A stretch of DNA of 64,000 nt from Clostridia bacterium (lineage in GTDB: Bacteria; Bacillota; Clostridia; TANB77; CAG-465): the NCBI GenBank assembly GCA_045611765.1, contig JAZKXT010000012.1, forward strand, positions 7,759-71,758, in the 5' to 3' direction. Positions 5,171-44,285 of the stretch are shown here, one piece after another (within the stretch, counting starts at the first letter, position 1; each line of letters starts with the position of its first letter). Made by a program: the position numbers and the translations under genes. The notes under the pieces are model-generated. The model was not told the DNA's origin, did not search any database, and saw only the letters and a program-made list of their open reading frames with translations.

Positions 5171-6934
5171 ATGAGTGATAAAAAAGGGTTAATAGTATTT
5201 ATAATTGCGCTTGTTGTCATCGTTGCGGGTACAATTATATTTTTAACTATGGATAAAACTGAACAAGAGGTGACATATACAGTTTCTTTTGCTAATAGCG
5301 ATGGAACAGTTATAGCAACACAAAAAATTGCTGATAACACAAAATTGTCAATGCCAAATTCACCAACTAAAGAAGGCTATGTTTTTATCGGTTGGACATA
5401 TAATGGTAAAGATTTTGATTTTAATTCGAACATTACATCTAATCTAATATTAGAAGCAAAATGGGAAAAGGTTGCTGAAAATAATAGTGAAGATAATAGC
5501 GAGAATAATGCTGAAGATAAAACAAATGTAGAAACAAAAAAGTATACAGTAACTTTTGATAGTAACGGTGGAACAACAGTAGAAAAACAATCAATAGAAA
5601 AAGGAGCTAAGGCGGTAAAGCCAACAAATCCAACTAGAAAAGGCTATACTTTCAAAGGTTGGTTGTTAAACAACGTTGAATTTAATTTTAATACAGCAAT
5701 AACTGAAGATATAGAATTAAAGGCTAAATGGAAAGAAGAAAAAATAACAGTAAAAACCCCAACAATAACAGAAGGTGGACGTGGCGGTGATGCTGATGGA
5801 AGCATAGGACTTTTATTGAAATTAAATTCAATAGAAGGAATAACAGGTATAGAAGTATATAGTGCCACAGCAAAAGATGGAAAATATACATTACAAAAAA
5901 CAGTAAAAAAAGAAAATTGGAATAATGAAACGGCTACAGTGCATGCAATGAAAGGACAACATTTATATTTCAAAGTAAGAACATATGTAAAAAACACAGC
6001 GGGAACATTCTATAGTAGCTATTCAAATGTTATTGGATTAGACAATACGTTAAAGACACCAACGTTATCTGCGGGTGGTGGAACAAAAGGTGTAGCGCTA
6101 TTAAGCATAAAACTAAAAGGTGTATATGCAGACGAAGGTATGTTAAATTTCATAGATGGTTATGAATTATATGAGAAGGTTGGCAACAAATATACAAAAT
6201 TAGACAGCTGGGAAGTAAGGGCGGATGTTGGCGAGACAAGAATCTTTGTAGCAAGAGTATATGCGTTAAATAAAGCTAATGAAAAGGTATATAGTGAATA
6301 TTCAAATGAAGTTAAATTAGAAAATAAGGTGCAAACACCAAAATTAGTAAATGCAATGGGTGGACCATATGGTGGTGATCTTAATATAATAGCAGATGGC
6401 TATTATGCAGATGTAGAGAATTTAGAGCTTATAGACGGAATAGAAATATACGAAAAAGTAGGTGACAAATATACAACTATTCATACAAGTGAATCAAAAT
6501 ATGTATTTGTAATGACATTAGATGCTGGCGAAAGCAAAACATATGTAGCAAGAGTATATGCATATAATAAAGCCGGAAAAAAAGTATATAGTGAATATTC
6601 AAATGAAGTTAAATTGAGAAATATGGTAGTAGCGCCCCAATTAGTAAATGCAATGGGTGGACCGACAGGAGGAACACTTAGTATAGTTTCAGAAGGCTTT
6701 TATGCAGATACAGATTATTTAGAATTTATAGACGGTGTAGAAATATATGAGAAAACTGGAAGCGAGTATACATTAGTTCATTCAGCACAAGATTACAAGG
6801 GATATAAAGTAACTTTGGACGTAGGCGAAAGCAAAACATATGTAGCAAGAGTGTATGCGCTAAATAAAGCTGGGAAAAAAGTATATAGTGAATATTCGAA
6901 TGCTGTAGTTTTATCTAACACTCAAGAACAATAG
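5171..6934 (+). CDS. cell-surface protein with an N-terminal membrane anchor, two Listeria–Bacteroides (Flg_new-type) repeats and three ~97-aa tandem repeats
   Basis: N-terminal transmembrane helix (LIVFIIALVVIVAGTIIFL). Two YTV[ST]F..[SN].G[GT].....[IV]......P..P...GY.F.GW repeat units. Three tandem repeat units each ending in ...ARVYA[LY]NKAGKKVYSEYSNEVKL. Confidence 0.7.
   Translation: MSDKKGLIVFIIALVVIVAGTIIFLTMDKTEQEVTYTVSFANSDGTVIATQKIADNTKLSMPNSPTKEGYVFIGWTYNGKDFDFNSNITSNLILEAKWEKVAENNSEDNSENNAEDKTNVETKKYTVTFDSNGGTTVEKQSIEKGAKAVKPTNPTRKGYTFKGWLLNNVEFNFNTAITEDIELKAKWKEEKITVKTPTITEGGRGGDADGSIGLLLKLNSIEGITGIEVYSATAKDGKYTLQKTVKKENWNNETATVHAMKGQHLYFKVRTYVKNTAGTFYSSYSNVIGLDNTLKTPTLSAGGGTKGVALLSIKLKGVYADEGMLNFIDGYELYEKVGNKYTKLDSWEVRADVGETRIFVARVYALNKANEKVYSEYSNEVKLENKVQTPKLVNAMGGPYGGDLNIIADGYYADVENLELIDGIEIYEKVGDKYTTIHTSESKYVFVMTLDAGESKTYVARVYAYNKAGKKVYSEYSNEVKLRNMVVAPQLVNAMGGPTGGTLSIVSEGFYADTDYLEFIDGVEIYEKTGSEYTLVHSAQDYKGYKVTLDVGESKTYVARVYALNKAGKKVYSEYSNAVVLSNTQEQ
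6040..6925 (+). repeat. three tandem ~290-nt in-frame coding repeats (about 75–85% identical at the nucleotide level)
   Basis: Three copies of gcaagagt(a/g)tatgc...aaagtatatagtgaatattc(a/g)aatg, each about 294 nt. Confidence 0.7.
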
Positions 6935-6959
6935 ATTAGCAAAAATTAAAATTAAAAAA

Positions 6960-6993
6960 AGAGTAATAACATTTTGTTATTGCTCTTTTTGCA
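6960..6993 (+). terminator. rho-independent terminator
   Basis: AGAGTAATAACA-TTTT-TGTTATTGCTCT stem followed by TTTTT. Confidence 0.65.
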
Positions 6994-7035
6994 TATATTT
7001 TACTCTTTTACAAATAATAATGCTAGGAGTGTATT

Positions 7036-8496
7036 ATGAAATTTATAAAAAAGAAAATAGTGAACAAGTTAGTTGTAAAAGATAAAGTGTCATTAATATC
7101 TAAAATTACAGACAGATTTAAAGACTGTGCGGATTTTGAATGTAATAAAATTGTGTCTCCTGTTACAGCTGTTGAAATATATAAGTTGAGCATGGGGCAA
7201 TTTGTAGACAAGCTAATAGTAGATGAAACAATTTTACAGCCCATAGCTAAACGCTTAGATACAATTAAGAATACTACAGATTTATTAAGCATTATTAGGA
7301 GTGGTGAAATATATCACATAGATGCAAAGGTAGAAACGGATGTAGATAAAATTGTATCCGCTATACTTCAAGCAAACTTTGTACTTGTGTGTGAGAATCA
7401 AGCATATTTGTTTAATGTAATAGGATATAACAAAAGGAGTATAGACAAACCAGAAAACGAGTCCTCAGAGAAAGGAGCTAAAGAGAGCTTTATAGAAACA
7501 GCTGTTATAAATATTTCTCTTGTCAGAAGACGTTTGCAAACTGAGAAATTAAAAGTTGTAGATTTTGAAGTTGGTACAGAAACAAAAACAAAAGTAAGTA
7601 TAATGTATGTTGAAGGGATTGCAGCGGATGAAGTAGTTAATTTAGTAAAGGAAAGAATAAAAAATATAAATGTACCAAGTCTTGTTTCTGTAGGGGATTT
7701 TGAAGAACATATTATAGACAGAAAGTACAGTATATTTCCCCAAACTATTGCTACAGAAAGACCAGATAAAGTAGCGGCAAATGTTATTGAAGGAAAAGTT
7801 GCAATATTTGTTGATGGCTTTCCAAGTGCATATATTGCACCAGCAGTATTTCCTATGTTCATGCAAGCATCAGAAGCGTATAACATTAATTACTTTGTAA
7901 GCTCGTTTATTAGAATGTTAAGATACGTTTGTGTATTTATAGCTACGTTATTCCCAGCGCTATATATAGCGATTACAACCTTTCATCACGAGATGTTACC
8001 CACAACACTTGCAGAAAGTATCATACAGAGCAAACAAAATGTTCCTCTTCCGGCTTTTTTAGAAATTATAATAATGTTACTTGCTTTTGAAGTGCTACTT
8101 GAGGCTGGTGTTAGAATGCCTAAAACTGCAGGACAGACGGTATCTATTATTGGAGCGTTAATTGTAGGTGAAGCAGCTGTAAACGCAAAGTTTGTTTCGC
8201 CTATAGTTGTAGTTATAGTAGCTATATCGGCTATATGTGGTTTCGTAATCCCAAATAGGGATTTGGCAAATGGCTTTAGAATGGTAAGATTTGGACTTGT
8301 CCTTGTAGCTTCAGCGGCAGGTTTCTTCGGCATGTCTGTTGCAATAATTGCGCTATTCTATTATTTAGTTTCGTTAGAAAGTTTTGGTGTCCCATATCTT
8401 AAACCCTTTACTTCAAATGATGGCAAAAATGTATTGGCAGATACTTTGTTTAGAGAACCAATAAATAAATCTAAAGGGAAAATGGCAAGGTGGTAG
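7036..8496 (+). CDS. spore germination protein, GerA/GerKA family (A subunit)
   Basis: Conserved GerXA core (GKVAIFVDGFPSAYIAPAVFPMFMQASEAYNINY) and C-terminal transmembrane helices. Confidence 0.85.
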   Translation: MKFIKKKIVNKLVVKDKVSLISKITDRFKDCADFECNKIVSPVTAVEIYKLSMGQFVDKLIVDETILQPIAKRLDTIKNTTDLLSIIRSGEIYHIDAKVETDVDKIVSAILQANFVLVCENQAYLFNVIGYNKRSIDKPENESSEKGAKESFIETAVINISLVRRRLQTEKLKVVDFEVGTETKTKVSIMYVEGIAADEVVNLVKERIKNINVPSLVSVGDFEEHIIDRKYSIFPQTIATERPDKVAANVIEGKVAIFVDGFPSAYIAPAVFPMFMQASEAYNINYFVSSFIRMLRYVCVFIATLFPALYIAITTFHHEMLPTTLAESIIQSKQNVPLPAFLEIIIMLLAFEVLLEAGVRMPKTAGQTVSIIGALIVGEAAVNAKFVSPIVVVIVAISAICGFVIPNRDLANGFRMVRFGLVLVASAAGFFGMSVAIIALFYYLVSLESFGVPYLKPFTSNDGKNVLADTLFREPINKSKGKMARW

Positions 8497-8498
8497 TT

Positions 8499-9734
8499 AT
8501 GAGAAGAAAGATTATATTAGGAATAGCAATTATTGGACTTTTAATTGTAACTCTATTTAACAGTGATCTTATGCCTTTAAGACGTGAAATTTCAGATATG
8601 GAAATAATAATTATAGCAGGACTAGACAAAGTTGGCGATGAATATATGGTAACATTCATAAAAAGAAAACAAAGCGGTAATAATTCGGAAGGTGATGGTC
8701 AAGATGCTGGAGGAAGTCAAGTAATTAGTATGACGGCAGACAGTTATAGTGTAGCTTTAAGGCAACTTCAAACCACTACAGATAAATTTACAACTGCCAG
8801 TCATATAAAATACTACATAGTAGGGGAGCAAACTTTACGTGAAGATTTTGACCACGTTACAGATGCAATAGCAAGGGGTTACCAAACAAGACTTAATTCT
8901 AAGATATATTTAGCTAAAGGAATGACGGCGAAAGAGTTTTTAGAAAAAGCCTCTAAACTAGAATTTCAGGTTGAAGAAAAATTAAGAAATATGGAAAATA
9001 GTTTTTGGGAAAAGGGAAGCAGTGTAGATACAGATATATTAGATTTTGGACACATTAGTTTTTCAGAAACGGGAGAAGGGTTGGTGGATGCACTTGCCTT
9101 TTATAGCACTGCACATGAAGAACAAAAGGATAATATGGAATCGTCGGTGGGAGGAAAAGAAGAAAAAACAAATGAAGCTATTTCATTCGGCTATGGTGGA
9201 ACCGCTATTATATCTGATTGTAAAATAGTAGGTTTTTTAGATAAAGACCAAACAATAATAGCAAATTATTTTTTAGGGGAAAATAATGTAAATGTAATTA
9301 CTGCTAGAGATAAGGAAAATTTTGTGGTGTTTAGAATAGAAAACTTAAATACAAAGATATCTTTTGATTTTAACGAAAAGGACGTTATGTCGGCAATAAA
9401 TATTGATGTGGAATTTAAAGCAAACTATGAAGAAACAAATGCTACAATTCCGATATTTACAATGGATATGATTTCATATTTTGAAAGAGAATTAAATAAT
9501 ACAGTAGAACAACAAATTGAAGGTGTTATAGCTAAAGAAATGGCAATGGGAGTAGATTTTTTATACTTAAGAGAAGAGTTGGAGCAAAAACATCCGTATA
9601 AGTATGAGAAAAACAAATATGAGTTTATTAATAACCTAAGAAATGCAAAAATTAATGTAAATAGCAAAGGAACTATACAAACTACATATGATGTTGTTGA
9701 AAGTAACAAAGACCAGAAAGGAGCAATAGAATGA
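8499..9734 (+). CDS. spore germination protein, Ger(x)C family (C subunit)
   Basis: Overlaps the 3' end of the A subunit. Has a signal/anchor sequence (MRRKIILGIAIIGLLIVTLF) and GerXC-like length and composition. There is no lipobox Cys in the N-terminal 30 aa. Confidence 0.7.
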   Translation: MRRKIILGIAIIGLLIVTLFNSDLMPLRREISDMEIIIIAGLDKVGDEYMVTFIKRKQSGNNSEGDGQDAGGSQVISMTADSYSVALRQLQTTTDKFTTASHIKYYIVGEQTLREDFDHVTDAIARGYQTRLNSKIYLAKGMTAKEFLEKASKLEFQVEEKLRNMENSFWEKGSSVDTDILDFGHISFSETGEGLVDALAFYSTAHEEQKDNMESSVGGKEEKTNEAISFGYGGTAIISDCKIVGFLDKDQTIIANYFLGENNVNVITARDKENFVVFRIENLNTKISFDFNEKDVMSAINIDVEFKANYEETNATIPIFTMDMISYFERELNNTVEQQIEGVIAKEMAMGVDFLYLREELEQKHPYKYEKNKYEFINNLRNAKINVNSKGTIQTTYDVVESNKDQKGAIE

Positions 9735-36204: not shown

Positions 36205-36660
36205 TTAAAGGCTGTTGTTTTTCTGGAATCTGTAATTGCGCATTTCTTTTTCAAATTGGTACACCGCTACTATGTGATTAACTTGTCTTTTGCCTGCTTT
36301 AGTACGATGTTTCTTTACAAGATACTCTAAATAGTAATAGCCATAAAATACAGACATACAAGTGGTAGCAACTACAAGTAGCCAAGCTAAGTTATAGAAG
36401 AAGCCAAAGTTAACGATGTAATCTCCATCTATAAAATCATAATTGTAAAACCAGGTAGAAGCTACAGTGTAACCGTTTTGCCGCATGAAAATGATTTCGC
36501 TTTTGTGAGGTTCGGGAATACTGTCAATGCTATAATAGGTGATTGCGGATTCGTTGTAGATGAGTGTTGTGATTACGAGTACGATGCAACAAGCGGCAAG
36601 TACGAATAACCAGAACGTTAATTTCTCTCTGAGGAAATCTCCTCTTTTGTTAGTGGACAT
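36205..36660 (-). CDS. hypothetical membrane protein (cassette H, about 151 aa)
   Basis: Three hydrophobic helices. Minus-strand promoter TTGCTT-17-TATAAT at about 36712–36684. Moderately GC-elevated. Confidence 0.45.
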   Translation of the reverse strand: MSTNKRGDFLREKLTFWLFVLAACCIVLVITTLIYNESAITYYSIDSIPEPHKSEIIFMRQNGYTVASTWFYNYDFIDGDYIVNFGFFYNLAWLLVVATTCMSVFYGYYYLEYLVKKHRTKAGKRQVNHIVAVYQFEKEMRNYRFQKNNSL

Positions 36661-36746
36661 AGTGTTGACCTCCATCTTTATATTTAATATAACATAATTA
36701 TATCATAAATTAGGCCAAAAAGCAAATTTATGTAAACGAACTACAT

Positions 36747-36799: not shown

Positions 36800-38947
36800 A
36801 TGAATGAACAAATAATAAACAGCATAGCAGCAAATTTAAATGTAAGAACAAATCAAGTAAAAAGTGTTTTGGATTTACTAGAACAAGGAAATACAATCCC
36901 TTTTATAGCTAGATATAGAAAAGAAGCAACGGGTGCTCTTGACGAAGAACAAATTAGAAGTATTAACGAAGTGTATGAATACCAAGTAAATCTTTTAAAA
37001 AGAAAAGAAGACGTTATTAGACTTATAGATGAAAAGGGAATGCTTACAGAAGAACTTGAAAAAGAAATTATGGCAGCTTCCAAGCTTGTTGAGGTTGAAG
37101 ATTTATATAGACCATTTAAGGAAAAGAAAAAGACAAAAGCAACTGAAGCGATTAAGCTTGGATTACAGCCATTAGCAGATAAGATATTAGAATTTCCTAT
37201 AAACGGTTCGTTAGAAAATTTAGCAAAGGATTTTATTACAGATAAAGTTGAAACAGTTGAAGCAGCACTAACAGGAGCTAAATATATAATTGCCGAAAAT
37301 ATAAGCGATAATAGTAGATTTAGAGGATGGATTAGAAAATATACATATAACTTTGGAACATTAGTGTCTAAGAAAAAGAAAAATGCCGAAGATGAAAATC
37401 ATGTTTATGATATGTATTATGAATATTCAGAATCTATAAAACATGTAAAGCCGCATAGAGTACTTGCATTAAATAGGGGGGAAAAAGAAGGCGTTTTAAG
37501 TGTAGCAATAGCTGTAGATAATACAGATATATTAGCACATATAGAAAAGTTCAGTATAAAAAATAAAAACTCATTTGTAGTAAATACAGTTAAAGAAGCT
37601 ATAGTTGATTCTTATGATAGACTTATTGCTCCAAGTATTGAAAGAGAAATACGTTCAGAGCTAACAGAAAAAAGCAGTGAAGTTGCAATAAATGTATTTG
37701 CTAAAAACTTAGAGAAACTATTACTTCAACCACCTATGAAAGATAAAACTGTGCTTGGTCTAGATCCGGCATTTAGAACTGGTTGTAAGCTTGCAGTAAT
37801 AGATAGAACAGGTAAGTATTTAGATATATCTGTTATATATCCTCATGAACCAAAGAACGAAACGTTAAAAGCAAAATTGCATGTATTAAACTTAATAGAT
37901 AAATTTAATATAGATATAATAGCTATAGGAAATGGTACCGCTTCAAGAGAAAGTGAAGCTTTCATTGTGGATGTAATAAAAGATGCAAAAAGAAAAGTGG
38001 AGTACATTATAGTAAATGAGGCTGGGGCAAGTGTGTATTCGGCGTCGAAACTTGCAATAAGTGAATTCCCAGATTTACACGTTGAAGAAAGAAGTGCAAT
38101 TTCTATTGCAAGAAGACTTCAAGATCCGTTATCTGAACTTGTTAAAATAGATTCTAAATCTATTGGAGTAGGACAATACCAACATGATGTACCAGAAAAA
38201 AGGTTAGATGAATCATTAGATTTTGTTGTATCTAAAGCAGTTAATATGGTTGGCGTAAATATAAATACAGCAAGTGGAGAACTTTTAAAATATGTTTCTG
38301 GAATGAACAAAAAAGCAATAGATAAACTAATTTCATATAGAGATGAAAACGGTAAAATAGTGTCTAGAGAAAAGCTTAAAAAATCTAAAGTTTTAAGCGA
38401 TAAAGTTTATGAACAAGCGATAGGTTTTATGCGTATTGAAGGTGGAGAAAATCCATTGGATAGAACAGGAATACATCCAGAAAGTTATGGTGTAGCAGAA
38501 GCAATATTGAAAATGTTAGAAATGAAAGTGACAGATATAGGCTCTGAGAAGTTAATTGAGGCGTTAGAAAAAACAGATGCAAAAGAACTCGAAGAAACGT
38601 TAAAAACGGATAAATATACGTTAGAGGATGTTATAAAGGCGTTAAAATCACCTGCAAGAGATCCTCGTGATGATTTTGAAAAACCACTTCTTAAAAGTGA
38701 TATATTAAAGCTAGAAGATTTAAAAGTAGGTATGAAACTTCAAGGAACAGTTAGAAATGTTGTAGACTTTGGTGTGTTTATAGATATAGGATTAAAGAAT
38801 GATGGTATGGCACATATTTCAAAACTTACAAATAAATATATTAAGCATCCGCTGGAAGTTGTTAGTGTTGGAGATATTGTTGACTGTTATGTTATTGAAA
38901 TAAAATTAGATAAGAAGAAAGTAGCTTTATCTTTGTTAGAACCTTAA
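36800..38947 (+). CDS. tex: transcription accessory protein Tex (YqgF/RNase-H-like, HhH and S1 domains)
   Basis: Conserved N-terminal IINSIAANLNVRTNQVKSVLDLLEQGNTIPFIARYRKEATG and a C-terminal S1 domain (GMKLQGTVRNVVDFGVFIDIG). Confidence 0.9.
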   Translation: MNEQIINSIAANLNVRTNQVKSVLDLLEQGNTIPFIARYRKEATGALDEEQIRSINEVYEYQVNLLKRKEDVIRLIDEKGMLTEELEKEIMAASKLVEVEDLYRPFKEKKKTKATEAIKLGLQPLADKILEFPINGSLENLAKDFITDKVETVEAALTGAKYIIAENISDNSRFRGWIRKYTYNFGTLVSKKKKNAEDENHVYDMYYEYSESIKHVKPHRVLALNRGEKEGVLSVAIAVDNTDILAHIEKFSIKNKNSFVVNTVKEAIVDSYDRLIAPSIEREIRSELTEKSSEVAINVFAKNLEKLLLQPPMKDKTVLGLDPAFRTGCKLAVIDRTGKYLDISVIYPHEPKNETLKAKLHVLNLIDKFNIDIIAIGNGTASRESEAFIVDVIKDAKRKVEYIIVNEAGASVYSASKLAISEFPDLHVEERSAISIARRLQDPLSELVKIDSKSIGVGQYQHDVPEKRLDESLDFVVSKAVNMVGVNINTASGELLKYVSGMNKKAIDKLISYRDENGKIVSREKLKKSKVLSDKVYEQAIGFMRIEGGENPLDRTGIHPESYGVAEAILKMLEMKVTDIGSEKLIEALEKTDAKELEETLKTDKYTLEDVIKALKSPARDPRDDFEKPLLKSDILKLEDLKVGMKLQGTVRNVVDFGVFIDIGLKNDGMAHISKLTNKYIKHPLEVVSVGDIVDCYVIEIKLDKKKVALSLLEP

Positions 38948-39000
38948 ACAGTAATTTATAATAGTAATATTAATAAGTAAACAAAAAAGAGAGCAGTTTA

Positions 39001-39103
39001 AAGTGCACCCCAAATGTTAAACATTTTTGTCTAACATTTTGGGTGCACTTCAAACTGAACTGAACCCAAAAAGTGTCTAACATTTTGGGTTCAGTTCAGT
39101 TTA
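39001..39103. terminator. twin long hairpins (19 to 20-bp stems) sharing a 16-nt core; bidirectional terminators between tex and the MraZ-like genes
   Basis: Hairpin 1 spans 39001–39050 and hairpin 2 spans 39052–39102. TGTCTAACATTTTGGG occurs at 39028–39043 and again at 39074–39089. Confidence 0.65.
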
Positions 39104-39116
39104 TTTACCTCTATAA

Positions 39117-39425
39117 TTACCTGTTTTCGGGGATATAGAATACTTTTTTAAAAGTTACTCTATTGTTTTGAACATAAAAGCTAATGTTATCGCCCGACTT
39201 AAGATTTAACAGCTCTCTTGCAAGTTTTGGAACAAAGAAGCGATTGTGATCGTCTAAATGAACTTCGCCAAGACAGTAACGCTTGGAGTTTTGTGAAGAA
39301 GGATTGTCTATGAAAAGCTCTTTGCCACAAACGAAAAGTCTTAACTCGTTTGAAAAATCCGTATGAGAAATTTTGATGAGGTCTTTAGGTACAACTAACC
39401 GATTTTGATTGTCAATTTTTGCCAT
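39117..39425 (-). CDS. MraZ/AbrB-like small protein with two D-x-x-x-R swapped-hairpin half-domains (paralog 1)
   Basis: First half-domain IDNQNRLVVPKDLIK and second LDDHNRFFVPKLARELLNLKSGDNISF correspond to the two D-x-x-x-R-[LV]-x-[IV]-P repeats of MraZ. Confidence 0.55.
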   Translation of the reverse strand: MAKIDNQNRLVVPKDLIKISHTDFSNELRLFVCGKELFIDNPSSQNSKRYCLGEVHLDDHNRFFVPKLARELLNLKSGDNISFYVQNNRVTFKKVFYIPENR

Positions 39426-39704
39426 AGTGAATACTCCTTTAAATACTTATAGTTGATAATTGTTGACATCAAGAAAGACAATTGTATTTCTTCATATCTA
39501 TATAATCTGTATTATTATACCATAAGGTAAACATAATATCAATAGCGTTATTATTCTATAGAGAGTAAAGGCTACTAGTTATAAAGAATAGTTTATATTC
39601 TTAAATTTAAATGGGAATTATTTATTAATTTTTGTGTTTAGTTTAAATAATATAACAATACCAGCCTTATATAAAGCTGGTATTATTACATTATTTTGTG
39701 ATAA

Positions 39705-39995
39705 CTACAAAATACGCTTAAATGTAGGCTTGCCCTTGTAGATGGAAAATTCTATTTCATCTCCAGGATTAAAATTGAAAATGCAGCGAATATGTTGGTG
39801 TATAGTAAAAGTATGAGCCGCATTTAAAGTGATGCGCCCTAAACAGGGAATAGAGTAATTTATGGATGATGGATTGTCTATAACGAGATTACCGTTATAA
39901 ACATAAAGACATAACATACGATTTATGTCTATATTACTTTCATTAATAATAGTTTGTGGTAGCGTTATTTGGTAACGCGAATTCATCTTTGACAT
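39705..39995 (-). CDS. MraZ/AbrB-like small protein (paralog 2, divergent)
   Basis: Contains SRYQITLPQTIINE..., shares the IDNPSS motif with paralog 1, and has a second half FNFNPGDEIEF. Confidence 0.5.
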   Translation of the reverse strand: MSKMNSRYQITLPQTIINESNIDINRMLCLYVYNGNLVIDNPSSINYSIPCLGRITLNAAHTFTIHQHIRCIFNFNPGDEIEFSIYKGKPTFKRIL

Positions 39996-40021
39996 AATAT
40001 CTCCTTATAGCCCAACCCAAA

Positions 40022-40354
40022 TTAGTAACTTTTTGTATGTAATGTGTTAAGAATAGATGATGCTTTGAAAAATGATATATTGCCCCGGCAAAAACAACAA
40101 ATGATATTGTCGTTAGGCGATATATTTAAGTATTTGCGTGCAAGACGAGGGACAACAAATCTTCTGTCTTCATCCAAATGGATTATACCAAGGTAGCGGT
40201 ACTCTTCGTTTTGCGGGGTGAGATTTCCTAAAAAGAATTGATTGTACCGAAGAAAGGCGGCGACATCTTTTGAGAAATCTATATCGGCGTTATCTACGAA
40301 AAAGCGTGGAATCGTTAATCGATTCCGGGAATCGAGTTTTGGCATTTGTTTCAC
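40022..40354 (-). CDS. MraZ/AbrB-like small protein (paralog 3)
   Basis: LDSRNRLTIPRFFVD and LDEDRRFVVPRLARKYLNISPNDNI. It is the first gene downstream of the minus-strand promoter TTGTTT-17-TGATATAAT at about 40400–40370. Confidence 0.55.
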   Translation of the reverse strand: MKQMPKLDSRNRLTIPRFFVDNADIDFSKDVAAFLRYNQFFLGNLTPQNEEYRYLGIIHLDEDRRFVVPRLARKYLNISPNDNIICCFCRGNISFFKASSILNTLHTKSY

Positions 40355-40423
40355 TCCTTTAAATTATTATTGCACTATTATATCACAAAGTATACATAAA
40401 AACAAATTAATAACTGCTTAATA

Positions 40424-40452
40424 ATAAAAAAAGAACGATTTAATCGTCCTTT
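40424..40452 (-). terminator. terminator of the por operon
   Basis: Minus strand GGACGATT-TAA-ATCGTTC followed by TTTTTTT. Confidence 0.6.
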
Positions 40453-40478
40453 TAATGAAATATTTATATTTTAACTTT

Positions 40479-43766: not shown

Positions 43767-44285
43767 ATGAAAAATTTAAAAGGAAAAGAAACAACAACAG
43801 AGCAAGAAGCAAAAGACTATTTTGAAACGCAAGAGCCATTAGATGACATTATGCAATATCTAGATATGGATGAAGTTATAAAAGGAATTGAAAAAGCTGA
43901 GAGAGAAATAGCAAATGGTGAAGGAATAGAATTCAGGGAGGCCTTTAGAATGCTTCGTAAGGAGGTGCTAGGTGAATTTAGCATTATTGTAGCACCGTCT
44001 TTTGACATAATGTTAACAGAGGTGTTGTATCGAAATAAATATTATAGTAATTCGTATACAAACAATATACTTAACAAAATTTATGTAGCAATAAGTGTGT
44101 TAGAAACATTTCCTTATGCCACTCCTAGTGTAAAATTTAAACATAAGACATGGTAATACAGAAAGTATATTGTAAATAATAGGTTTTTAATTATATATAA
44201 AATAGAGCAAGATAATATCTATTTGTTGTATTTTATAGATGCACGAATGAGATACGAAAATTATTTTAAAGTTCATGTAGATTAG
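43767..44285 (+). pseudogene. decayed type II toxin-antitoxin locus: antitoxin-like N-terminus fused in frame to a ParE/RelE-like toxin interrupted by an in-frame TAA at 44154–44156
   Basis: Residues 1–68 are antitoxin-like (...IEKAEREIANGEGIEFREAFRMLRKEV). The sequence then runs without a stop into a ParE-like N-terminus (FSIIVAPSFDIMLTEVLYRNKYY...LETFPYATPS). After the TAA, the same frame continues as YRKYIVNNRFLIIYKIEQDNIYLLYFIDARMRYENYF, a typical RelE/ParE C-terminus, up to the TAG at 44283–44285. Confidence 0.5.

Follow-up and report, generated by a model that had tools for sequence, protein, structure and literature searches.

Tandem small proteins of the MraZ/AbrB superfamily, candidate autoregulated DNA-binding regulators, between tex and the por operon of a Clostridia bacterium

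A stretch of 64,000 nucleotides from a Clostridia bacterium (assembly GCA_045611765.1, contig JAZKXT010000012.1), the whole of which is called the window here, carries three small tandem genes, designated p1, p2 and p3, between tex and the pyruvate:ferredoxin oxidoreductase (por) operon. Their products resemble the regulators MraZ and AbrB, and the locus raises the question of what such short proteins do at this site and why there should be three of them. The best explanation, which we regard as probable though well short of certain, is that p1 and p3 are autoregulated minimal MraZ/AbrB-type DNA-binding regulators and that p2 is a co-expressed partner without the DNA-contact pair.

Three paralogous genes and their predicted fold

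The genes and their flanks are as follows.

39117..39425, minus strand: p1, intact open reading frame (ORF), 102 aa, isoelectric point (pI) 9.2
39705..39995, minus strand: p2, intact ORF, 96 aa, pI 8.9
40022..40354, minus strand: p3, intact ORF, 110 aa from a GTG start, pI 9.3
36800-38947: tex, convergent with p1–p3, flank on the p1 side
43479-40479: porCDAB, four-gene pyruvate:ferredoxin oxidoreductase operon, flank on the p3 side

The three genes are ordered head-to-tail as p3, p2 and p1, each with a consensus ribosome-binding site, and are separated by 26 bp (p3/p2) and 279 bp (p2–p1). An alternative ATG start of p3 at 40345, 8 nt after AAAGGAG, gives a protein of 107 aa with the N-terminus MPKLD and is probably the likelier start, since the GTG overlaps the ribosome-binding site and MPKLD fits the N-terminus of the family. 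With either start codon p3 was not found in a collection of 15 billion proteins in which p1 and p2 are both present, so that p3 is probably unannotated in the source record.

An earlier note, made from the letters of this DNA alone, had described three tandem paralogs between tex and the por operon and away from any dcw cluster, and these points hold: pairwise comparison gave identities of 32% for p1–p2 (E 1.5e-18), 39.5% for p1–p3 (E 7e-21) and 24% for p2–p3 (E 5e-10), a range of 24-40% which is wider than the 30–38% it had given, the motif IDNPSS is common to p1 and p2 as it had stated, no rsmH or ftsL adjoins the genes, and the ten large window ORFs scanned contain no dcw genes and are ordinary housekeeping genes (e.g., SecA, ComEC, Clp ATPase, AddB and DnaE). 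The elevated GC content that it reported was not borne out, as the values for p1, p2 and p3 (0.35, 0.33 and 0.378) lie close to the mean of the 43 window ORFs (0.328, sd 0.046; z = 0.5, 0.0 and 1.1); a GC anomaly or a compositionally suggested horizontal transfer was rejected, all three z values being at most 1.1.

MraZ of Mycoplasma genitalium reads GTG(G/T) boxes via Lys13, Arg15 and Arg86, and the two arginines belong to two DXXXR motifs in which they are held by Asp11 and Asp82 (PMC12957436). A double motif of this kind had been claimed for all three window proteins, which is correct for p1 and p3 and incorrect for p2. When the window is translated in all six frames, the pattern D-x3-R-[LVFI]-x-[IV]-P has exactly four matches, two in p1 (D5..R9 and D58..R62) and two in p3, where D..R is present in both halves, while p2 has no D-x3-R in either half and carries N..Q and N..T at the aligned positions. 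The equivalent of MraZ Lys13, two positions before the Arg, is not conserved (Q7 in p1). The C-terminal tail of p1, FYIPENR, is conserved as FIPENR across the p1 clade.

In this superfamily, the barrel of AbrB is built from two chains and that of MraZ from one longer chain. Several lines of evidence place the window proteins here. The two halves of the family are mutually homologous (hhalign 92.5%, E 4.9e-7). A family profile of 32 members matches the N-domains of SpoVT, AbrB and Abh with its C-terminal half (E 7e-4 to 2e-3) and MraZ with its N-terminal motif (E 5e-3), and p2 scores 19.8 bits with the Pfam MazE/SpoVT-AbrB model. AlphaFold2 models of p1 and p2 are confident (predicted local distance difference test, pLDDT, 91.7 and 95.6), and each consists of two β-α-β-β repeats with only two helices of 6-7 residues. 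Both models are ordered throughout, only the last ~6 residues of p1 dropping to a pLDDT of ~56, and 6-10 residues extend beyond the last strand, the rest of the chain being the two barrel halves. The top Foldseek matches are the MraZ proteins of M. genitalium and M. pneumoniae (TMq 0.61-0.67), with the 2026 M. genitalium structures ranked first. The confident models and the top rank of MraZ support the predicted double swapped-hairpin barrel that the earlier note had proposed to look for by AlphaFold, as well as its suggestion of an uncharacterised swapped-hairpin family. On these models, p1–p3 are supported as single-chain double swapped-hairpin proteins of the MraZ/AbrB superfamily. Two tandem UPF0040/SpoVT-AbrB-like repeats per chain forming one barrel is the arrangement of MraZ, and the window proteins share it; judged by analogy, the window proteins would resemble MraZ and AbrB at the level of the DNA-binding cradle, and they are treated here as lying outside MraZ proper.

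Promoters and candidate operators

Regarding transcription, the following elements were located around the three genes.

40377..40405, minus strand: promoter of the p3–p2 operon, copy of the family promoter block TTGTTTTTATGTATACTTTGTGATATAAT, with extended −10 and the invariant spacer
39514..39542, minus strand: promoter of p1, copy of the family promoter block TTGATATTATGTTTACCTTATGGTATAAT, 11 of 12 consensus positions, with TG
39471..39492: candidate operator, the 22-nt palindrome AAGAAAnACAATTGnnTTTCTT, within the p1 leader and ~20-40 nt downstream of its −10
39645..39696, minus strand: likely terminator of the p3–p2 operon, a hairpin/palindrome with the core ACCAGC-N9-GCTGGT behind the p2 stop
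40429..40453, minus strand: intrinsic terminator of the por operon, separating por from the p3 promoter

The arrangement proposed earlier, with a promoter shared by p3 and p2 and a separate p1 promoter followed by a palindrome, is retained and is strengthened by its conservation in related genomes, the loci of which are referred to by L numbers. The promoter block, TTGnnTTTATGTmTACyTTrTGrTATAAT, is ~29 nt long, comprises a −35 TTG, a 17-nt spacer and an extended −10, and is situated before the leading family gene of each related por–tex locus, with one copy per locus and two in the window. The p1 copy is a strong promoter (TTGATA-17-TATAAT with the extended −10 TG), and a 'GTATAC' variant of the p3-promoter block recurs before the p3-type gene in L017. 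The hairpin after p2 missed the T-run criterion of the terminator scan; L017 has a comparable terminator behind its p2-type gene.

The block has 22 invariant columns across eight sequences, most of the spacer included. When invariant positions were counted in the same genomes, the family block had 23-24 of 30, compared with 15 of 30 for the tex promoter, in which the two hexamers are conserved and the spacer is not, and 17 of 30 for the best window upstream of porC. The coding sequence beside the block is diverged, its synonymous sites being near saturation, and the block is nevertheless more invariant than the tex and porC promoters, which argues for a protein-binding site inside the promoter; as far as can be judged from the alignments, an autoregulatory operator is the obvious candidate. 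The sites that MraZ binds at its own promoter are three or four direct repeats of GTG(G/T), spaced by six nucleotides. Written as TTTATGT-CTAC-TTTrTGr, the block shows two TG(T/G/A) elements 11 nt apart which recall MraZ boxes, a resemblance that is only suggestive because the second of these elements falls on the TG of the extended −10.

The palindrome AAGAAAnACAATTGnnTTTCTT occurs once in the window, where 0.12 occurrences are expected by chance, and is kept at the same position in L001, L008 and L009, before whichever family gene leads. The RNA fold of the p1 leader is not unusually stable (z −0.83), and Rfam gave only sub-threshold generic hairpin matches in the p2–p1 spacer and the p1 leader; this makes a DNA operator likelier than an RNA element, and an RNA element in the spacer or leader was rejected on these grounds.

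Two other sets of hairpins were observed at the locus. Between the stop codons of tex and p1 (38994-39102) lie two adjacent long hairpins, one with 30-nt arms that are 90% complementary and the other with 23-nt arms that are 96% complementary, which share the 25-nt direct repeat TGTCTAACATTTTGGGTKCASTTCA, found nowhere else in the window, and which gave generic hairpin matches in Rfam; they are probably bidirectional terminators that arose by local duplication. A terminator-like hairpin, GGAATCGATTAACGATTCC, with a T-rich run lies within the 5' coding sequence of p3 (40308-40326, minus strand) and is probably a chance match; it overlaps the codons of the motif SRNRLTIPR.

The family and the por–tex slot in related genomes

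A word-indexed search found ~30 close orthologues of p1 (43-79% identity), only p2 itself for p2, and no p3. An exhaustive profile search was more productive, with 189 cluster representatives at E ≤ 1e-3; for 38 of them E was 1e-10 or lower. Most of these are of 93-110 aa, while a sizeable group (~20) of 184-220 aa has two full matches, that is, two units fused in one chain; the weaker matches have AbrB domains in tandem and in many cases end in a Cys-rich tail, and no canonical MraZ was identified among the matches listed. Pfam MraZ is matched by 28 of 51 diverse members (E ≤ 0.01; best E 6e-8) and MazE/SpoVT-AbrB by 11 of the 51. The few family records that carry a name read "hypothetical protein [Clostridia bacterium]", and none is described by function. 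A p1-type gene fitting the search pattern was present in only two GTDB species representatives, both metagenome-assembled genomes of Clostridia. Phage and plasmid collections (tblastn) and viral-contig collections held no relatives, and a mobile-element origin was rejected on that result; PADLOC gave no match for the family proteins.

By best-hit scores and in a neighbour-joining tree, p1, p2 and p3 fall in three separate clades, namely a p1 clade of the FIPENR-tailed orthologues, a p2 clade with P0038 (52% identity), P0041 and the L017 gene at 1356-1664, and a p3 clade with P0037 and P0039, and the two units of the fused proteins form a clade of their own. The sequences thus point to three older subfamilies and not to a recent local triplication. 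The earlier note had allowed that the ORFs might be one decayed gene, and this idea, together with that of a split of the fused 188-aa form, was rejected: the p3 and p2 clades are apart from the fused units, and L017 carries its p3-type/p2-type pair as two separate genes. The Asp/Arg pair is present in both halves of 65 of 99 single-unit proteins and in neither half of seven, whereas 35 of 43 units of fused proteins lack it in both halves. In each of the p2-type members checked (p2, P0038 and the L017 copy), one or both of the D/R pairs are disrupted: both are lost from p2 and from the L017 copy, and P0038 keeps a partial motif. This argues that p2 is a persistent, well-folded subtype without the DNA-contact pair and not a decaying copy.

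Synteny is conserved in that the slot between porB and tex holds the family in every por–tex relative, with contents that vary as listed here; the further small genes of the slot are called cargo.

L001/L003: a single p1-type gene followed by a membrane protein of 103 aa and by proteins of 130 and 107 aa
L004: a 155-aa protein, one p1-type gene, then proteins of 172, 137 and 103 aa (cargo at 5338-6627)
L006: two tandem family genes (102 and 95 aa) only
L008/L009: a two-unit fusion of ~188 aa, then a p1-type gene, a Cys-rich membrane protein of 169-172 aa, and proteins of 134 and 102-107 aa
L014: VanW, a fused protein of 183 aa, a p1-type gene, then proteins of 171 and 130 aa (cargo at 5336-6281)
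L009 5414-5980, L008 5420-5983 and L014 4437-4988: the fused two-unit proteins, 183-188 aa, four half-domains

All halves of these three fused proteins lack the Asp/Arg pair, and the proteins are positioned where the window has p3 and p2. In L017 the order is VanW, promoter, p3-type gene, p2-type gene and terminator, the same module as the p3–p2 operon of the window, and L016 pairs a p1-type gene with a p2-type gene behind it.

Comparison of the window with L008 and L009 shows that tex, porA, porB and rplL are 91-95% identical and the p1 orthologue 78-79%. Nonsynonymous (dN) and synonymous (dS) divergence and their ratio (ω) were estimated by the Nei-Gojobori method between the window and L001, L004, L008 and L009, over the 102 codons of p1. 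The p1 orthologues have dN of 0.08-0.18 and ω of 0.04-0.09, and dN of tex and porB is 0.02-0.04, so that p1 appears from its codons to be under clear purifying selection and yet to change in amino acid sequence 4-5 times faster than its flanking genes. The dS of p1 orthologues is 1.1-2.3 or saturated, two to three times that of tex and porB (0.45-0.8) in the same genome pairs, and may reflect cassette exchange, codon bias of the flanks or noise from only 102 codons. The slot is hypervariable, and these comparisons suggest that the subfamilies are shuffled, duplicated, fused or lost there within an uncultured Clostridia clade.

Regarding the neighbours, cargo also follows the p1-type gene at L009 6336-7586 and L008 6338-7619. 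The cargo of relatives includes a protein of 169-172 aa whose N-terminus is Cys-rich and which has a single transmembrane segment, an acidic protein of 130-137 aa and an acidic protein of 102-107 aa; no match to any cargo protein (169-172, 130-137, 102-107, 155 and 103 aa) was found in Pfam, PADLOC, PHROGs or PDB sequences, and tblastn found none of these genes in the window. PADLOC applied to the neighbours gave one weak match (E 0.077), to a neighbour in L001, and none that was credible. The distant family members P0096 and P0102 are solitary genes convergent with glyS. Near a distant solitary member, L012 carries two zeta-toxin genes (6470-8836), each after an epsilon-like gene of 61-70 aa, which are not partners of the family because glyS separates them from the family gene. 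In the window itself, two further ORFs without a family assignment were noted, one for a predicted membrane protein of 156 aa between rplL and tex (36205-36675, minus strand), with an ORF of similar size at the corresponding position in L008, and one of 129 aa between por and comEC (43767-44156, plus strand).

Competing explanations and known systems

In the preferred explanation, the two homologous half-domains of ~50 aa in each chain of ~100 aa would form a complete 'cradle' barrel. By analogy with MraZ, the basic p1 and p3, with D-x3-R in both halves, would bind DNA in the major groove, and they would repress their own promoters through the block with the invariant spacer and, in the case of p1, also through the leader palindrome. 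The p2 protein, which has kept the fold, has lost both Asp/Arg pairs and is co-transcribed with p3, would serve as a partner or modulator making no DNA contact of its own. What the analysis shows is the ORFs with their paralogy, fold and family, the synteny, the purifying selection and the conservation of the promoters; binding to DNA, autoregulation and what p2 does are what we infer for this locus.

Several observations weigh against this explanation. Profile searches, which had been proposed as a check of the swapped-hairpin idea, gave a divided answer: the family profile matches SpoVT, AbrB, Abh and MraZ, and p1 passes the AbrB domain model of NCBIfam (TIGR01439; 29.6 bits against a cut-off of 28.3, in two stretches), but p2 and p3 do not match that model, and with Pfam MraZ (PF02381) p1 and p3 reach 18.2 and 15.6 bits, under the gathering threshold of 23, and p2 has no match. 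The proteins have neither the oligomerising helices of MraZ nor the C-terminal domain of AbrB, which leaves the affinity and cooperativity of a pseudo-dimeric monomer unaccounted for. Conservation of the promoter block could in part reflect a strong promoter alone, given the overlap of the second 'box' with the extended −10 TG, and the 64-kb window has no third copy of the block and hence gives no sign of a regulon. As the cargo operon headed by the p1-type gene in relatives is missing here, the primary target of p1 may be absent from this genome. Finally, the tree from which the subfamilies were assigned carries no support values, and the organism is known only from metagenome-assembled genomes.

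Two other explanations concern what kind of protein p1–p3 are. They could be orphan type II antitoxin-like proteins with the AbrB fold of MazE, VapB or PrlF, whose toxins were lost or lie elsewhere, as would agree with weak matches to the Pfam MazE_antitoxin and PrlF models (E 8e-4 to 0.16) and with the match of p1 to PHROG 4681 'antitoxin' (E 2.9e-7). However, no toxin-family gene neighbours any family member in the window or in the distinct locus types examined, the neighbours in relatives gave no family match in Pfam, PADLOC or PHROGs, the known antitoxins with an AbrB fold are homodimers of single-domain chains, only 6-10 residues are left for a toxin-binding tail, and relatives are missing from plasmid, phage and viral collections. 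We consider this explanation very unlikely, and the antitoxin-like triplet offered as an option in the earlier note is accordingly unsupported: in the loci examined, toxin-like neighbours, a long tail at the C-terminus and matches to phages, plasmids or PADLOC are all lacking. That the genes encode a displaced or degenerate form of the canonical cell-division regulator MraZ would be in keeping with MraZ being the best structural match and its Pfam model the one most often matched across the family; set against this are chains of 96-110 aa instead of 126-166 aa, the missing ring-forming helices, scores below the Pfam cut-off, flanks of tex and por in every por–tex relative with no adjacent rsmH or ftsL, and the lack of a canonical MraZ among the family-profile matches listed, and we regard it as extremely unlikely.

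The remaining explanations concern function. Small, basic proteins (pI about 9) expressed from very strong promoters with extended −10 elements and consensus ribosome-binding sites, and with distant members standing alone among housekeeping genes, could be abundant and largely non-specific nucleoid-associated AbrB-fold proteins (Sso7c4-type or 'histone-like' AbrB), but an amino acid sequence that changes 4-5 times faster than the flanking genes, a variable copy number with subtypes that lack DNA-contact residues, and confinement to a narrow clade are ill-suited to a core chromatin protein, which makes this unlikely. Similarly unlikely is a role as protein-binding adaptors whose barrel and FIPENR tail dock cargo proteins, the window copies being leftovers after cargo loss: the same ~170-aa membrane protein and ~130-aa protein do follow the p1-type gene in L004, L008, L009 and L014, the tail is conserved across the p1 clade and subtypes without the D/R pair persist, yet most members keep in both halves the Asp and Arg that serve DNA reading in MraZ, and p1 is under purifying selection and retained with its own promoter in a genome without the cargo. 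A bolder form of the regulator explanation, which we hold to be doubtful, is a modular 'mini-MraZ' system in which p1/p3-type readers and p2-type or fused units form mixed assemblies that tune the repression of a shared, invariant promoter-operator, the cassette being swapped between lineages at a por–tex hot spot. If true, cassette swapping would explain why dS in p1 exceeds that of the flanks two- to threefold, and the system would be an undescribed route to cooperativity in the swapped-hairpin superfamily, without ring helices or the AbrB C-terminal domain.

If the regulator explanation were confirmed, the family would be the smallest bacterial single-chain MraZ/AbrB DNA-binding cradle, working without the oligomerisation modules of either relative, and would help to separate the barrel's own share in DNA recognition from that of ring or tetramer assembly, a question for which contact-competent paralogs, contact-lacking paralogs and fusions form a ready evolutionary series. 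On the practical side, the family has no name and Pfam mostly misses it; beyond that its biological importance is modest, as this would be a lineage-restricted regulator of uncultured gut-type Clostridia.

Among known systems, MraZ (PF02381/UPF0040; 1N0E, 9QLG/9R4J/9SZ7) likewise has two homologous swapped-hairpin halves in one chain that form one 'cradle' barrel, and it shares D-x3-R in both halves with p1 and p3, unlike p2 with its missing DNA-contact residues; autoregulation at the own promoter is probably a further likeness. Its solved chains are of 126-166 aa, compared with 96-110 aa in the window. Its rings of at least eight subunits form via the interdigitating helices α2-α3 and the C-terminal helix (PMC12957436). 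These ring-forming elements (α2-α3 and α6, in the octamer or dodecamer) are missing from the window proteins, for which 96-110 aa and only two short helices leave no room. MraZ heads the dcw cluster upstream of rsmH/mraW, whereas the family is flanked by tex and por in the window and related loci and occurs in up to three tandem copies and, in relatives, as fused doubles. With the N-domains of AbrB, Abh and SpoVT, which are transcription regulators of Firmicutes, the C-terminal half of the family aligns (E ~1e-3), including D-x2-G/N-R-[VF]-V-I/V-P-K and the subsequent Arg-bearing helix; AbrB-type proteins, however, have one half-barrel per chain, form the barrel as a dimer and tetramerise by a C-terminal domain, while the family has both halves in one chain and no such domain.

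The AbrB-fold antitoxins MazE, VapB and PrlF share the DNA-binding barrel fold and weak profile matches with the family, but they form homodimers, carry a long disordered tail for toxin binding and are encoded beside a toxin gene; the family has none of these features. PhS018 of Pyrococcus horikoshii (2GLW; 92 aa) is akin to the family in size and in being a single chain with two AbrB-like halves; it is archaeal, its sequence similarity to the family is not significant (E 0.16), and it offers no functional transfer. Thus the fold and superfamily are already known, and PhS018 is an archaeal precedent for the single-chain form; new are the bacterial single-chain form of ~100 aa without a known oligomerisation module, its occurrence at a single hot spot in tandem copies, as fusions and in variants without the contact residues, and its invariant promoter.

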